From Escherichia coli (lineage in GTDB: Bacteria > Pseudomonadota > Gammaproteobacteria > Enterobacterales > Enterobacteriaceae): a stretch of DNA of 64,000 bases. A program made the translations under genes and the position numbers. Numbering within the stretch: position 1 is the first letter of the stretch; each line of letters starts with the position of its first letter. Where the stretch lies: assembly GCF_041248615.1 (NCBI RefSeq), contig NZ_CP158426.1; one strand, written 5' to 3'. Of this stretch, positions 25,031 to 30,640 are shown one piece after another. The notes beneath the pieces are model-generated. The model saw only the letters and a list, made by a program, of their open reading frames with translations. It was not told the origin of the DNA and made no database searches.

Positions 25031-25600
25031 TATGAATGTCGGTTCCTATACACTGGGGGGCATGGGTACGTCAGCTCAGGCGGGAACGTCAGGATACCAC
25101 GTCTTCTGCATCACCACTCACATCAGAGTAGCAACGTATTCATGAACTGGAAAAGCAGGTTCGTCGCCTGGAGGAACAAAAAACGATATTAAAAAGCTAC
25201 AGTGCTCTTGATATCCTTCCCACTGAACGGTTTACGATAGTTACCAGACTGAGCGGCGACACACGATTGTCAGTCTTTGCGCTGCTCTGGATGCTCATTG
25301 CAGCAGTTCCGGCACTGGCAGAATCGGCTCAATACGATTGATCCGGCGCGAATCAAATTGTATAGCGAAACAGTCCGGGTCTGGAACCAGAGTCGGGGTT
25401 CCGCAGGTGCGCGTGCTCTGGCAGATATGCTGATTCAAAATGGTATCCCGATGAGCAGTTGTCGTGCCAGGCGGCTGATGAAGCATCTGAACCTGAGAAG
25501 TGCTCAGCCCGGAAAATATCAGTACAAAAATGCCCGCCAGGAGCATACCAGCCTGCCGAGTCTGCTTGAGTGTCGGTTTTCTGTGCTGGAGGCCGAGCAG
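25031..25600 (+). pseudogene. IS3-family (IS911-like) element fragment: 3' part of orfA and first ~110 aa of orfB
   Basis: Homologous to the fuller copy at 59345-60075 that begins [21 protein letters not shown]. Confidence 0.55.
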
Positions 25601-25696
25601 GTATGGATTCTTAAATAAACCTCGAGTCTGTCTGGAATATAGAATCGGTAGCTAACGATGAGAAACCCAACAATCCCATCGGGTGTGACGGTGGAG
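25600..25696 (+). mobile_element. Group II intron remnant (older copy), 5' domain I segment, cut by IS3
   Basis: About 93% identity over ~75 nt to positions ~50-128 of the intact intron (sense of 26179-28448). Confidence 0.6.
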
Positions 25697-25726
25697 TGAT
25701 CCTACCCACGTAATGTGGACACGGCC

Positions 25727-28700
25727 CTAAGCGAGATTATGGTTTTCAAATTGTTCCGGGCTGAGACCGCCACAGGCACTGTGACGACGCCAGCGATTGT
25801 AATCACACTCGATATAATTAAACACCGTTGCCCGCATTATTTCCCGGCTGCTAAAGCGTTCCCCGTGGATACATTCCACCTTCAGCGAATGAAAGAAGCT
25901 TTCCACACAGGCATTGTCATAACAGTAGCCTTTCGCACTCATACTGCCACGCAGGTTGTGTCGCTTCAGCAGCGCCTGATAATCCCCTGAACAGTATTGA
26001 CCACCACGGTCCGTATGAGCAATGACGCTTTCCGGGCGTCTTCTCCGCCACAACGCCATTTGCCGTGCATCACAGGCCAGTTGTGCTGTCATTCGCGGTG
26101 ACATCGACCAGCCAATGACGGCGCGTGACCACAGGTCGATGACTACTGTGAGATACAACCAGCCCTCATCGGTACGCAGTAGAGTAAGAGGCAGGGCGTA
26201 GTCGGACTATTTCCCTGCCTCTCCTCCCCGAACCGGACATGCACCTTTCAGCGCATCCGGCTCTCCATTTAAACGCTGGCGAACGCCATTGCCACTTCTG
26301 TAAAGCGCGATGTATACGTCTTTCTGGTTTCCGTCCTCAGATAGGGATTACCTTCGGGTAGCCGCCAGCGGAACAGCTTCTTGCCTTGCCCCACCAACCG
26401 GTACAGTATTTCGCCGCTGAGCTTGCCGTGATTGGTTTTACCAAATAAAACCCACGTTTTGCTCTGACCCGGTTTCGGTGATTTACACCACCACCTCATC
26501 AGGGAAGCGATACTTGTACGGTATTTGCGGGCCAGCCAGTGAGCCAGCTTCTAGAACACGACACGGTCGATATAACTGAAGACTTTGGCCTTAAAATCAA
26601 CGAACTGATAGAACATGGCCCAGCCTTTCAGTTTTCGGTTGAGTTGTTCAGCCATATCGACTTTGCTTTCACTGTAGTTGCCTGATAACAGTGCTGTCAG
26701 CGATGCGGCGAAGTTTCTGGCTTTCTCCAGCGGGATCGTTGAGACCACTTGCATCTCGCCATAACGACTGCGTTTGCGAATGATCCTGTGCCCCAGAAAG
26801 ATAAAGCCGTCATTAACATGGGTGATTTTAGTCTTATCCATGTTCAGCCTGAGTTTCAGACTGCCTTCGAGCACACCCCGACACTCCTCCCTGATGGCTT
26901 CCGCCTGTGCTTTGGTGCCTTTGACGATGAGGACAAAATCATCGGCATAGCGGCAGTACGCCACCGCGGGTTTCCACTGCCAGTTTTCTCTGACCGCCGT
27001 ACTTCGGCCCCGTTGGATACTGTTATTCCAGTACCACCGATCTTTTCTTGCTTTCCCGCTCAGGTAGCGCTCATGCAGGTATTGATCGAACTCATTCAGC
27101 ATGATGTTCGACAATAGCGGCGATATAACACCGCCCTGTGGCACACCTTCACTGGCCGCCCGAAAGAGACCGACATCGATATGTCCCGCCTTGATGGTTT
27201 TCCACAGCAGAGTCATGAAACGTGCGTCACTGATCCTGCGGCGTACAGCCTTCATCAGCAGTCGATGATGTACGGTGTCGAAGTAACTGGACAGGTCGCC
27301 TTCAATCACCCAGCGTCCCCGGGTTTCACCGCAGTCGGTGAGCTGTAATTTCACCGTGCGGATCGAGTGGTGGACACTGCGCTCAGGCCGGAAGCCATAT
27401 GAGAGCGTATGAAAATCACTCTCCCATATCGGCTCCATCGCCATCAGCATGGCCCGCTGAACAATACGATCCCGCAACGCGGGGATACCCAGTGGTCGCA
27501 GTTTGCCATTGCTTTTAGGGATGTAAACCCGCCTGGCGGGCAAGGGCTGGTAGTGGCCTGAGAGTAATTCATCCCTGAGGATTTGCAGCTCAACAGCCAG
27601 TCTGGCCTGTAGCATTGTTTTGTTCACGCCATCAACACCGGGGGTATTCGCCCCCTTTGATGAAAGCGTGATCCGCGCCGCTTCAGCCAGCCATTCTGGT
27701 TGTGTTATCAGACGCAGCAGCCGTTGAATCCGTAGGGACGGATCGGTGGCTGCCCATGTGGCAAGCTTGCGTTGCATTTCGCTGATTATCAAAGGTCTTC
27801 ACCTCGTTAGGTCAGTTAATTTACGTCGCAGACACATTCAAACTGCTTCCCTTCGCCATGTAATGGGCTTTCCCCATCGCGGACTACTACGGAAGCTCCG
27901 CCAGCCAGCGCGTCATCGGAGCCATGCCCCCTTAACATCCGTCGCTGACCTTCCCCGGTTTGCCTGACTGGACTCAGACATACTGAGGAGGCTGCCCGTC
28001 GCACTCTTTATCCTTGCTTGCCGCAAGTTGGCAGAAGTCAGCAACGCGAGCGTGATAGACGCTGCTGCCCCGGAGTTTCGCATACATGTCAAAACACCTT
28101 CGACCGGCAGTGCTTACGTATCACTGCCAGTTCCTCCTGCACGGCCTGTCAGATCACGTAGGCCGTGGTGACGTTTTCAACCCACAGAGGCGGATTAACG
28201 GGTTCATATTCTTAAGCCTTTCAGTACTTAACCTTGAGGATCATCTCGGCTTAGTGATCTCGCCTCAATCCCCGTTGTCAGCGGGTTACATCACCCTGCG
28301 GGCATGCCGCAGGTCACTGCCGCTCAGGTTCTCCACCGTCACACCCGGTGGGATTGTTGGGTTTCTCATCGTGAGTTACCGGTTCAATATTCCAGACAGA
28401 CTCGTGGTTCATTTGAGCGTCTATGCTCGCCCTGAACTCCGGGCACACAGTACGTGATGTCACCCACCCACTTCTGGTTCGGGCCGCTGGCGCTGAAGTC
28501 CTGCTCCAGCAGATTCTCCAATACGGGCAGGCCATGTGCACGGTAGCTGGCCGGGCTGAACTTCCGGCTGGCTTTCGCCCGCAGCCCCTGACGACGCAGG
28601 CTGGCGGCAATGGTTTTAATATTGAACTCCGGCAGTTCGTCAGCAAGGCGGGGAGCACCGTATCGCTGCTTTGCCTCAAAGAATGCCTTATGGACAGCGG

Positions 28701-29400: not shown

Positions 29401-29439
29401 ATACTTACAACTAAGGCATCAGAACCCGTTTATGGAGCC

Positions 29440-30372
29440 GCTTATGCCCAGGGAAGCGAGAGATACCATGTCACTACGTTCTGAGTTTGTTCTGCCCGCC
29501 TTCAGCACGGTGCATAACCTGATGGCCCGCAATGGCCTTCTGCCCGGTCTGGTTGCGGCAGCCCCGGCGACGGGCCGCTTCGAACACGCCGAACCAGCTC
29601 TGGCAGATGGATTTTAAGGGGCACTTTCCCTTTGGCGGTGGACGCTGCCATCCGTTAACGCTGCTGGATGATCATTCCCGTTTTTCCCTGTGTCTGGCTC
29701 ACTGCGCCAATGAACAACGGACGACCGTGCAGCAACAGCTGGTCAGCGTATTTGAACACTACGGACTGCCGGACAGGATGCACCTGGACGGCACTGGAGT
29801 TATGGCTGATGCGTCAGGGTATCAAGGTGGGGCACTCCAGCCCGTACCATCCACAGACGCAGGGCAAGCTGGAACGTTTTCACCGCAGTCTGAAGGCGGA
29901 AGTTTTGCAGGGTAAGTGGTTTACAGATGCGGGTGAGTTGCAGCGCGCCTTCGATCACTGGCGTACAGTCTATAATCTTGAACGCCCGCATGAAGCTCTG
30001 GATATGGCTGTTCCTGCCTCACGGTATCAGCCGTCAGCGCGACAGTTCAGGAGCAATGTAGAGCCGCCGGAGTATGACGAGGGTGTGGTAGTCAGGAAGG
30101 TGGATATCAGGGGTAAACTGAGTCTGAGAGGTGTCAGTCTGAGTGCGGGCAAGGCATTCAGAAATGAACGCCTGGGGCTGAAGGAGACGCAGGAAGACGG
30201 TCAGTATGAAGTCTGGTGGTACAGTACAAAAGTGGGGGTGATCGACCTGAAAAATAAGTCGATCACCATGGCAAAGAATGTTAAAAAGTGTTCACCATGT
30301 CCCCGAACACCTGTCTACCATGTCTCCGGATCGTACACAGGTGAACCCGGGAGGGTCAGCGATGGATATTAA
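29440..30372 (+). pseudogene. IS481-family transposase (rve domain), N-terminally truncated and frameshifted
   Basis: ORFs 29532-29915 and 29668-30372; motifs NQLWQMDFKGHF and SPYHPQTQGKLERFHRSLK. Confidence 0.6.
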
Positions 30373-30394
30373 GGAAACATGGCGTTGATGACGC

Positions 30395-30640
30395 GCTAGC
30401 GAAATGCAACGCAATCTTGCCACATAGGCAGCTACCGGCACCTCCAGACGGATAGAACGGCTACTGCGTCTGATAACACAACCAGAATGGCGGCAGCCCT
30501 GCAGACAGAAAATGTGGTAAAAGCGTTCAGACAGACTCTGAGGCTGGGAAAAATGACGAGTCCCCTGATACATCATTCTGTACTGTTCAGCTTTCTATCA
30601 ATCATTTCATGAAAAAAACGGGATGACTTGTTCAATCATG
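30395..30640 (+). pseudogene. Composite debris: group II intron RT 5' fragment (30395-30490) joined to an IS3-family orfB fragment (30491-30640)
   Basis: gcgaaatgcaacgcaa...ctgcgtctgataacacaaccagaatgg matches the intact intron RT start; ...LQTENVVKAFRQTLRLGKMTSPLIHHS matches orfB of the 46470-47700 element. Confidence 0.5.

Follow-up and report, generated by a model that had tools for sequence, protein, structure and literature searches.

We analyzed a 64,000-nucleotide stretch of Escherichia coli DNA (hereafter, the window) that carries the sitABCD-sodC ... ibrAB region of a genomic island, and found there a graveyard of nested mobile elements. The explanation that we consider best, with a probability of about 85%, is that a fixed relic of the group II intron E.c.I4 with a truncated maturase resides in ISEc16, which itself sits in the remnants of an older intron. 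An initial annotation had proposed repeated insertions of introns into IS elements and of IS elements into introns; our data uphold this nested architecture and add that the older intron had its own host, another IS3-family element. This pile-up of selfish DNA is ordinary and already known. The window is collinear with the genome of E. coli SMS-3-5 (99.7% identity over 8354 bp), and the coordinates published for E.c.I4-25 and E.c.I4-tr2 in that strain correspond to positions 26179-28448 and 29210-29341 of the window. The SMS-3-5 entries of the published catalog describe E.c.I4-25 as full length but carrying a "disrupted ORF", and E.c.I4-tr2 as a 132-bp fragment with about 84% identity that lies on the opposite strand, 761 bp from E.c.I4-25 (Leclercq and Cordaux, 2012, PLoS One 7:e52268; Tables 2, S2, S3). 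SMS-3-5 thus shares with the window the same locus, the same full-length intron with its disrupted reading frame, and the same 132-bp fragment. These entries list the intron and one fragment; the position of the nonsense codon (W409*) and the target duplications are not mentioned in them, and the additional pieces of the older intron and the nesting of ISEc16 and an IS481-family element are not described there.

A Full-Length E.c.I4 Intron Interrupts the orfB Gene of ISEc16

ISEc16 occupies positions 25697-29209 on the minus strand and measures 1243 bp without the intron. It is bounded by the terminal inverted repeats TGATC(T/C)TACCCAC... and carries an intact orfA gene (28848-29147, minus strand; 99 aa), with orfB in the -1 frame and split by the intron; repeats of the TG...CA type, this arrangement of orfA and orfB, and a DDE transposase place it in the IS3 family. 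The name IS3 previously given to this host had to be abandoned, since the element is about 81% identical to copies annotated as "IS3-like element IS3", whereas, after splicing in silico, it is 99.2% identical to an uninterrupted 1244-bp annotated ISEc16. That uninterrupted copy, found elsewhere, is flanked by a CTC/CTC duplication and possesses a programmed frameshift. The proposed in-frame joining of the two exons (...GDITY|LRTDEGW...) was borne out: the junction is free of indels and matches the uninterrupted copy, and the joined OrfB protein scores 316 bits against NF033516 (cut-off 160).

The intron itself spans 2270 nt on the minus strand (26179-28448) and is inserted in orfB after GAC ATC ACG TAC T. 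Its boundaries are those given earlier; it starts with 5' GTGTG and ends with ...CTAC, matching the 5' GUGYG and 3' AY termini of group II introns, and its removal restores the host gene exactly. It is 98.5% identical, without indels, to a full-length copy hosted by IS911 that possesses an intact ltrA gene, and its nucleotides 1-1764 are 98.3% identical to the K-12 ykfC fragment, which agrees in locus and length with the published E.c.I4-tr1 (1764 bp). Judged by these sequence comparisons, the intron is E.c.I4, which has been placed among the introns with class A ORFs lacking an endonuclease domain (PMC3552965).

As described for E.c.I4, the intron targets specific positions in the transposase genes of IS629, IS911, ISEc16, and ISEc31 (PMC3522654), and its published homing site is the D(I/V/F)TY-coding stretch of IS3-family transposases. 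The window copy is inserted at these conserved DxTY codons of orfB, and the insertion point is the same in ISEc16, IS911, and IS629 (after TAY-N, before T). For exon positions -6 to -12, a candidate EBS2 (nt 155-161) offers pairing at 7/7 nucleotides in ISEc16 and at 6/7 in both IS911 and IS629, while a candidate EBS1 (nt 221-225) pairs at 5/5, 3/5, and 3/5, respectively; other registers are possible for both. The intron sequence of these candidate exon-binding regions is identical across the insertions in the three IS elements.

Rfam model RF00029 covers domains V and VI (26179-26265, minus strand) with 64 bits (gathering score 40; E = 2.8e-10), in agreement with the former placement of domain V at 26230-26263, and an unpaired A, as expected for a branch point, can be read straight from domain VI 7 nt from the 3' end of the intron. 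For domains I-IV, the Rfam D1-D4 models gave no match and minimum free energy folds were not diagnostic. The bulge of domain V reads AU instead of AC (C>U at nt 2210, position 26239), a change confined to the lineage of the window: in an alignment of six copies, U was present in the window and in strain EC332, and C in the four copies with an intact ltrA.

The RT/Maturase Gene of the Intron Is Interrupted by a Stop Codon

The ltrA gene of the intron (26269-27777, minus strand) encodes, as stated earlier, a reverse transcriptase with a YADD motif, and Pfam detected RVT_1 (residues 86-332 of 502; E = 5e-34) and GIIM (residues 356-426; E = 1e-10). These were the only domains found when the 502 aa were scanned, and no HNH (D/En) domain was present among the matches. 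With its stop codon read as tryptophan, the product scores 335 bits against TIGR04416 (cut-off 300); it differs from WP_001189111 at eight positions, one of which is W409*. It is this residue that invalidates the former description of the intron as intact. An in-frame TAG (26551-26553) replaces TGG at codon 409 of 502, within the GIIM domain, so that the translated product is cut in the X/maturase domain and loses its 93-aa C-terminus; in the PGAP annotation, too, ltrA is a pseudogene, with the remark "internal stop". The intact RT/maturase gene expected of a bacterial group II intron is thus lacking.

Bacterial group II introns generally need their maturase for splicing in vivo. Because the maturase of the window copy is truncated, this copy most likely represents a dead end that would be unable to splice or to move by itself, and autonomous splicing, intron mobility, and expression of the ISEc16 transposase have probably all been lost. 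The earlier proposal that splicing could restore a functional transposase is undermined by W409* together with the lineage-specific C>U substitution in the bulge of domain V. That proposal, in its full form, would make the nested pair a live, self-regulating mobile unit in which splicing yields an active ISEc16 transposase. The intact exons and their in-frame joining would fit it, as would a ribozyme without indels and with a good score for domains V and VI. We nevertheless regard it as improbable, given the loss of part of the maturase (X) domain and of the C-terminal tail, the bulge substitution, the listing of this copy as inactivated in the SMS-3-5 entries of the published catalog, and the distribution of the element. 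The 100%-identical junction between ISEc16 and the intron occurs in about 55 genomes with one match per genome, and every locus whose context we inspected was found at the same chromosomal site.

Events at the ISEc16 end in two sister strains also bear on this question. EC332 and XDL contain the same ISEc16 with the same stop-bearing E.c.I4, and in both the left inverted repeat (IRL) of ISEc16 is fused to a truncated ibrB gene through a 3-kb deletion anchored precisely at the IRL; therefore, deletions do start at this IS end. Since the deletion postdates both the intron and the nonsense codon in that lineage, some transposase or recombination must have acted there after the stop codon arose, a point in favor of a functional pair. 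A related view, which we hold to be rather unlikely, is that transposase continues to act on ISEc16 even though the intron dividing its transposase gene has a dead maturase, and that, separately, perfect 604-bp inverted copies of the IS-relic/intron stub (see below) may drive inversion of the 33.7-kb segment of the island that lies between them. Such transposase could be supplied in trans by further ISEc16 copies, or be made by the split copy itself if some splicing persists or is assisted in trans.

Rescue in trans deserves consideration in its own right, since E.c.I4 was found in about half of complete E. coli genomes (2668 of 5426), at up to 20 places per genome, and some genomes with the window locus possess two or three intron places in the chromosome record. 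The maturase of such other copies might splice the window copy, whose ribozyme is, as noted, nearly identical to those of copies with an intact ltrA, and low levels of ISEc16 transposase would then be expected in multi-copy strains. Group II maturases, however, have a preference for the very RNA from which they are translated, and 8 of the 15 listed chromosomes with the window copy have a single intron place, in a count that covers chromosomes alone. The altered domain V bulge may, in addition, reduce catalysis. We therefore consider such rescue doubtful, and a dead-end copy remains our preferred reading.

Remnants of an Older Intron Surround ISEc16

The plus-strand intron segments previously reported on both sides of the IS element do align to E.c.I4. 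Their identity ranges from 79 to 91%, however, rather than from 85 to 93%, and the right-hand piece ends at about 29354 instead of 29400. Fragment 1 (25610-25696, plus strand) corresponds to E.c.I4 nt 32-118 (blastn, 90.8% over 87 nt; E = 2.5e-29). Fragment 2 (29210-29354, plus strand) directly adjoins the ISEc16 IRL and corresponds to nt 332 to about 470 (82.0% over 133 nt at 29210-29341; E = 1.7e-31); it equals the E.c.I4-tr2 published for SMS-3-5 (132 bp, 84%). Between the two, the older intron lacks 213 nt (nt 119-331), in line with the previously noted gap of about 200 nt. Fragment 3 (30338-30491, plus strand) comprises nt ~483-545, a weaker match at 30338-30400 (79%; E = 3e-9), followed by nt 666-759. 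The RT ORF begins in the latter stretch and is interrupted there by an in-frame stop; claimed before at 30395-30490, this stretch was matched at 30398-30491 (87.2%; E = 1e-27). About 120 nt (546-665) are missing from fragment 3, which is truncated at nt 759 and labeled by PGAP as "reverse transcriptase, internal stop, incomplete".

Fragments 2 and 3 are separated by a decayed IS481-family element (29355-30337, plus strand) that is related to ISEc19/yagA, sits inside the older intron, and was absent from the earlier reading. It is flanked on both sides by a 6-bp duplication, CAGGTG, one copy of which (29349-29354) constitutes the last 6 nt of fragment 2, and its ends form the inverted repeats TGTACGAT.../...ATCGTACA (ends and duplication were defined against L013). 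Its nucleotide sequence is 93.7% identical to an annotated plasmid-borne IS481-family element and 81% identical to ISEc19. The best family match of its protein fragment is NF033577, with a score of 89 bits that falls below the cut-off of 224 because about 250 bp have been lost from within the gene, which is also frameshifted. Transposase type, inverted repeats, and the length of the duplication (about 6 bp) all agree with membership in the IS481 family.

To the left of fragment 1 lies an IS3-family relic (24986-25606, plus strand; PGAP, IS3 family pseudogene at 24975-25606) that represents the 5' exon, and hence the host, of the older intron. It had been described as an abutting IS911-like element, which holds at the protein level; its closest relative in nucleotide sequence is ISEc31 (77.4% identity). 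In tblastn comparisons, it shares 60% amino-acid identity with ISEc31 OrfB and 40-52% with IS911. The relic breaks off exactly at a W codon, and the D-I-T-Y homing site would be expected 16 nt further on; pairwise alignment places at 25607-25609 a deletion of 47 nt that took the 5' splice site of the older intron together with about 16 nt of the exon. On the right, the composite is closed by an IS3-family transposase fragment (30498-30636, plus strand; PGAP pseudogene) with 79% identity to 46845-46694 (minus strand). This fragment is unrelated to the relic on the left: it has no match to ISEc31 OrfB and was therefore rejected as the 3' exon belonging to the host of the older intron.

The segment 25027-25630, which contains part of the IS relic and 21 nt from the start of the older intron fragment, recurs as an inverted duplicate at 59319-59922 (minus strand; 100% over 604 bp), and an ISEc31-like 3' end (59307-59177) comes after it there. 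Strain 50EVA has an alternative joint.

Could the older pieces be separate fragments brought together by IS-mediated rearrangement or homologous recombination? The locus is recombinogenic, as seen from the perfect 604-bp duplicate 34 kb away and the joint in 50EVA; a hybrid-exon E.c.I4 copy exists in L012, and ISEc16 lacks a target duplication. An assembly of this kind is nevertheless very unlikely. All four pieces lie on one strand in ascending intron order (32-118, 332-470, 483-545, 666-759) and have diverged from E.c.I4 to a similar degree, and the flanks of the perfect 6-bp IS481-family duplication read through as continuous intron. A single, decayed intron is thus the reading that we retain.

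Proposed History of the Locus

The order of events that we infer begins with an IS3-family element resembling ISEc31, whose conserved D-I-T-Y codons would have been the homing site of an E.c.I4-like intron. Decay would have followed, in which this intron lost the 5' splice site and some 120 nt from its interior and was truncated at nt 759, and an IS481-family element would have entered it by clean transposition, leaving the 6-bp duplication. Subsequently, ISEc16 may have entered domain I of the older intron, with a deletion anchored at the IS end removing 213 nt and the 3-bp duplication. The flanks of ISEc16 are indeed GAG and GTA, as the earlier report of a missing duplication implied, and we attribute this to the adjacent deletion and not to non-membership in the IS3 family. 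Recombination between two ISEc16 copies, rather than intramolecular transposition, could alternatively account for it. In ISEc16 itself, a copy of E.c.I4, a common intron, occupies the corresponding D-I-T-Y site, which is the normal retrohoming target of this intron. The pairing of E.c.I4 appears to tolerate third-position codon differences between IS3, ISEc16, IS911, and IS629. In a competent copy, the intron-encoded maturase would help to splice the IS transcript, and the ligated orfAB mRNA would yield transposase by -1 frameshifting; the window copy would later have gained W409*.

The locus provides a worked example of the published idea that homing into other mobile elements allows bacterial group II introns to survive, and also of a second one, that nonsense mutations, further IS hits, and recombination decay such intron/IS tandems. 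This decay fits the selection-driven extinction model as outlined by Leclercq and Cordaux (2012). The practical gain lies in the correct names and states of the parts (E.c.I4, ISEc16, an ISEc31-like relic, an IS481-family element, and an ltrA pseudogene), and in the caution that full length and a good domain V do not guarantee an intact intron. Beyond annotation, the significance is small.

Comparison with Known Systems

The closest relatives of the young intron are the E.c.I4/S.f.I1 ("IntA") copies in IS629, IS911, ISEc31, ISEc16, and IS3 (Dai and Zimmerly, 2002; Han, 2004; both as cited in PMC3522654). They are the same intron (98-99% identical), and share with the window copy the D(I/V/F)TY insertion point in orfB and a class A intron-encoded protein without an endonuclease domain. 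The window copy differs by W409* and the C>U substitution in the bulge of domain V, whereas most E.c.I4 copies (such as L004, L009, L010, and L012) have an intact ltrA. The K-12 CP4-6 ykfC locus (E.c.I4-tr1), in which an E.c.I4 inserted in IS911 is truncated by IS5 and the IS911 contains IS30, resembles the window in its nesting of an IS3-family element, E.c.I4, and further IS elements, with the 98.3% identity over nt 1-1764 given above. In K-12, however, it is the young intron that is truncated, whereas in the window the young intron is full length and an older, diverged intron is fragmented. A more distant parallel is RmInt1 in ISRm2011-2 of Sinorhizobium meliloti, a group II intron that likewise lacks the endonuclease and uses the transposase gene of an IS element as its homing target; its splicing has been suggested to regulate how the host IS is expressed (PMC4238363, PMC1802570). 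RmInt1 differs in belonging to class D/IIB3, in residing in another IS family and another bacterium, and in that its activity has been demonstrated by experiment.

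Structure of ISEc16 and its exon junction

The nested architecture described in the initial annotation, with one intron inside an insertion sequence and a remnant of another around it, is real and well above what chance would produce. The host element had been named IS3; with the intron removed, it shares 99.2% identity with uninterrupted copies of 1244 bp annotated as ISEc16, versus about 81% with IS3 proper. ISEc16 occupies 25697-29209 on the minus strand, measures 1243 bp without the intron, and possesses IS3-type inverted repeats and an intact orfA (28848-29147, minus strand). 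In agreement with the proposal that the exons join in frame, orfB reads across the junction (...|LRTDEGWLY...) uninterrupted after removal of the intron. Compared with one uninterrupted ISEc16, the junction contains no indels, and the sole length difference is a single nucleotide upstream of orfA. At the orfA/orfB overlap, Rfam gave an ALIL pseudoknot match (28775-28875, minus strand) of 21 bits, under the gathering score of 50; this weak match is consistent with the -1 frameshift signal of IS3-family elements. PGAP also annotates an ALIL feature in two IS629 copies (L009 and L010).

The E.c.I4 copy carries a disrupted maturase gene

The group II intron within orfB, E.c.I4, spans 26179-28448 on the minus strand (2270 nt) and has the termini 5' GTGTG and 3' CTAC. 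Its nucleotides 1-1764 are 98.3% identical to the ykfC fragment of K-12, which is catalogued as E.c.I4-tr1, a "fragment of 1764 bp" in prophage CP4-6 (Leclercq and Cordaux, PLoS One 2012, PMC3522654). The Rfam model for domains V and VI (RF00029) matches 26179-26265 with 64 bits (gathering score 40, E = 2.8e-10) and places domain V at 26230-26263 on the minus strand. At a permissive threshold, the models for D1 to D4 gave no match in 24900-30800, where only DV/DVI was found. The intron ORF contains a YADD motif, an RVT_1 domain (residues 86-332, E = 5e-34) and a GIIM maturase domain (residues 356-426, E = 1e-10). A Pfam search of this ORF did not find an endonuclease domain, and E.c.I4 has been placed in ORF class A, among the ORFs lacking this domain (PMC3552965).

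While the intron had been regarded as intact, its reverse transcriptase/maturase gene, ltrA, is interrupted. It starts with an ATG at 27777 and runs for 408 codons to a TAG at 26551-26553, beyond which the frame continues to 26269. With this stop read through, the NCBIfam group II RT/maturase model scores 335 bits (cut-off 300). Relative to the intact 502-aa LtrA WP_001189111, whose source is an intron copy 98.5% identical to this one and free of indels, eight residues differ, W409* among them. The stop falls within the GIIM/X domain, so that the 93 C-terminal residues are missing; PGAP reports an "internal stop" ltrA pseudogene in all opened genomes with this locus. In the two-nucleotide bulge of domain V, intron nucleotide 2210 (window 26239) is a U in this lineage and a C in four copies with intact ltrA.

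ISEc16 lies within a remnant of an older intron

A blastn search of the whole window with the intact intron returned four plus-strand pieces in ascending intron order, corresponding to nt 32-118 (25610-25696, 90.8% identity), nt 332-464 (29210-29341, 82.0%), nt 483-545 (30338-30400, 79.4%) and nt 666-759 (30398-30491, 87.2%), the last comprising the RT start with an in-frame stop. ISEc16 stands in place of nt 119-331 (213 nt), and nt 546-665 (about 120 nt) are absent. The older-intron segments reported on both sides of ISEc16 thus exist, but their limits require refinement: the stretch 29342-29400 had been assigned to the intron, and an IS481-family element that begins at 29355 was overlooked. 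This decayed element (29355-30337, plus strand) sits between older-intron nt ~470 and ~483. Its identity is 93.7% to a plasmid copy and 81% to ISEc19/yagA. The element has the ends TGTACGAT.../...ATCGTACA, carries an internal deletion of about 250 bp, and is bracketed by a perfect 6-bp CAGGTG duplication (29349-29354 and 30338-30343).

The piece of nt 32-118 is preceded by an IS3-family relic (24986-25606) with 77% nucleotide identity to ISEc31 and 60% protein identity in its OrfB part. The neighboring element had been called IS911-like, a description that fits at the protein level (40-52% identity in this copy) but not at the nucleotide level, where blastn gave no match to the 5' part of IS911. 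Homology of the relic ends exactly at a W codon, 16 nt short of the expected D-I-T-Y site; hence, the end of the exon and the 5' splice site have been lost, 47 nt in all, and the older intron occupied the same kind of homing site. Aligning 25590-25609 to intron nt 16-31 was rejected, as it required two gaps within 20 nt and overlaps the better-supported reading of this stretch as IS exon. On its other side, the older intron breaks off at nt 759, next to an unrelated fragment of the IS3 family (30498-30636). We tested and rejected the idea that this fragment forms the 3' exon of that intron's host, since it showed no similarity to ISEc31 OrfB and a different IS3-family element, at about 46.7 kb (46694-46845), matches it with 79% identity. 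Tblastn with ISEc31 OrfB revealed further IS3-family transposase remnants at about 43700-47050 (minus strand) and 40090-40235 (plus strand). An isrC sRNA match (24966-25048, plus strand; 30.8 bits, gathering score 39, E = 0.0012) overlaps the left edge of the relic and may just reflect IS-derived sequence in the isrC seed.

A search of 5426 E. coli genomes and 72,556 plasmids for a closer relative spanning the full length of the older intron found nothing above about 83% identity at full coverage. The older intron represents a diverged E.c.I4-like lineage without a sampled intact copy, and not a decayed form of the present E.c.I4.

Loss of the target duplication and deletions anchored at the IS end

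The uninterrupted ISEc16 used for the alignment above is flanked by the expected 3-bp duplication (CTC), whereas in the window the triplets at the two ends differ (GAG and GTA), in keeping with the duplication previously noted as missing. The 100%-identical junction of ISEc16 and intron is present in about 55 genomes. Two of these carriers, EC332 (L011, 1600-1900) and XDL (L014), were opened in addition to the genomes listed for 24000-31500; both match the locus on the sodC side and carry the same ISEc16::E.c.I4(W409*), and in both the left inverted repeat (IRL) of ISEc16 is directly fused with an internal part of ibrB. The deletion covers about 3 kb, equivalent to window positions 29210 to ~32230, and has removed the right-hand pieces of the older intron, the IS481-family element, the PAPS-reductase gene and the start of ibrB. 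It postdates both the intron and the stop codon within it. Since this fusion indicates that deletions starting from this IS end have taken place at the locus, the simplest explanation for the missing 213 nt and the lost 3-bp duplication would be an earlier, smaller deletion on the IRL side. The same outcome could also have resulted from recombination between two copies of ISEc16.

Target site and spread of E.c.I4

The targeting of E.c.I4 is credited in the published catalogue (PMC3522654) to Dai and Zimmerly (2002) and Han (2004). We compared the insertion site with those of five further copies, one of which, EC332, represents the same locus in a sister strain. In all three hosts the intron is inserted after TAY-N and before T: GAC ATC ACG TAC T|TG in ISEc16, GAT GTG ACC TAT A|TC in IS911 and GAT TTT ACT TAC G|TC in IS629. 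Because nt 1-520 of the intron are essentially invariant among the compared copies, this shared insertion point indicates that the intron recognizes codon positions 1 and 2 of D-x-T-Y and tolerates the wobble positions. A search for exon-binding sites (EBS) by complementarity and RNAfold of domain I yielded several competing registers. Candidate nt 155-161 (GUGAUGU) pairs with exon positions -6 to -12 at 7/7 (ISEc16), 6/7 (IS911) and 6/7 (IS629) positions, and candidate nt 221-225 (AGUAC) with -1 to -5 at 5/5, 3/5 and 3/5, respectively; the loop at nt 289-296 provides another candidate register. None is decisive, because an intron sequence that is invariant across hosts offers no covariation.

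E.c.I4 is present in 2668 of the 5426 complete E. coli genomes, with the ISEc16/IS3-type junction in 398 genomes, and relatives occur on 1728 plasmids from Escherichia, Klebsiella, Salmonella, Enterobacter, Yersinia and others. In E. coli ETEC1701 (L012, 2530-4880), the 5' exon of E.c.I4 belongs to IS911 and is split by IS30, as it is in K-12, and the 3' exon (…TCCGCACCTGGCAGGGCTGG…) is unlike that of the IS911 copy L004 and the other aligned copies. This copy looks like a hybrid formed when introns residing in different IS elements recombined.

Splicing and mobility

In a competent copy, the intron-encoded maturase would assist splicing of the IS transcript, and the ligated mRNA would yield the OrfAB transposase through -1 frameshifting. 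By reverse splicing, the excised intron RNP would then enter D-x-T-Y sites in other IS3-family elements that lack an intron. Since E.c.I4 lacks an endonuclease domain, reverse splicing probably takes place at replication forks, as demonstrated for RmInt1. With its maturase truncated, the present copy is unlikely to splice or move autonomously, and production of the ISEc16 transposase from it would require maturase supplied in trans.

Genomic surroundings and comparison with catalogued copies

A perfect 604-bp inverted repeat (25027-25630 and 59319-59922, 100% identity), consisting of the ISEc31-like relic and the first 21 nt of the older intron, encloses about 33.7 kb. In the copy at 59319-59922, the intron stub is followed by about 11 nt and then by an ISEc31-like 3' end (59307-59177). 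In strain 50EVA, the sodC-side arm continues into the inner flank of the opposite arm (window 59318 to 58891), which suggests inversion or recombination between the relics. According to the island annotation taken from L001 (window 18000-37500), sitABC and sodC, followed by IS110, IS200/IS605 and IS256 relics, lie on one side, and PAPS-reductase-like and IbrB-like genes (an ibrAB-like pair), followed by IS66 and IS100, on the other; IS pseudogenes are very dense throughout. Strong Rfam matches to isrN (42764-42906, plus strand, 138 bits) and STnc490 (21150-21271, plus strand, 134 bits), sRNAs first described in Salmonella, are found here inside an E. coli island region.

The window is chromosomal E. 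coli DNA. NZ_LT599825 and several other genomes match its segment 24000-31500 with 100% identity, and in 32 of the 5426 complete genomes at least 80% of this segment lies at a single place. E. coli SMS-3-5 (NC_010498) is collinear with the window (99.7% over 8354 bp); for this strain, the supplementary table of PMC3522654 lists E.c.I4-25 at 3241200-3243470 (98%) and, on the opposite strand and in the "same strain-specific GI", E.c.I4-tr2 at 3240307-3240438 (132 bp, 84%). The spacing and lengths of these two entries agree with window positions 26179-28448 and 29210-29341. In the main text of that study, the SMS-3-5 copy "exhibits a disrupted ORF" and is regarded as inactivated. All components and their behavior are known, and the published catalogue already includes the locus itself, as an inactivated copy of E.c.I4 with a fragment.
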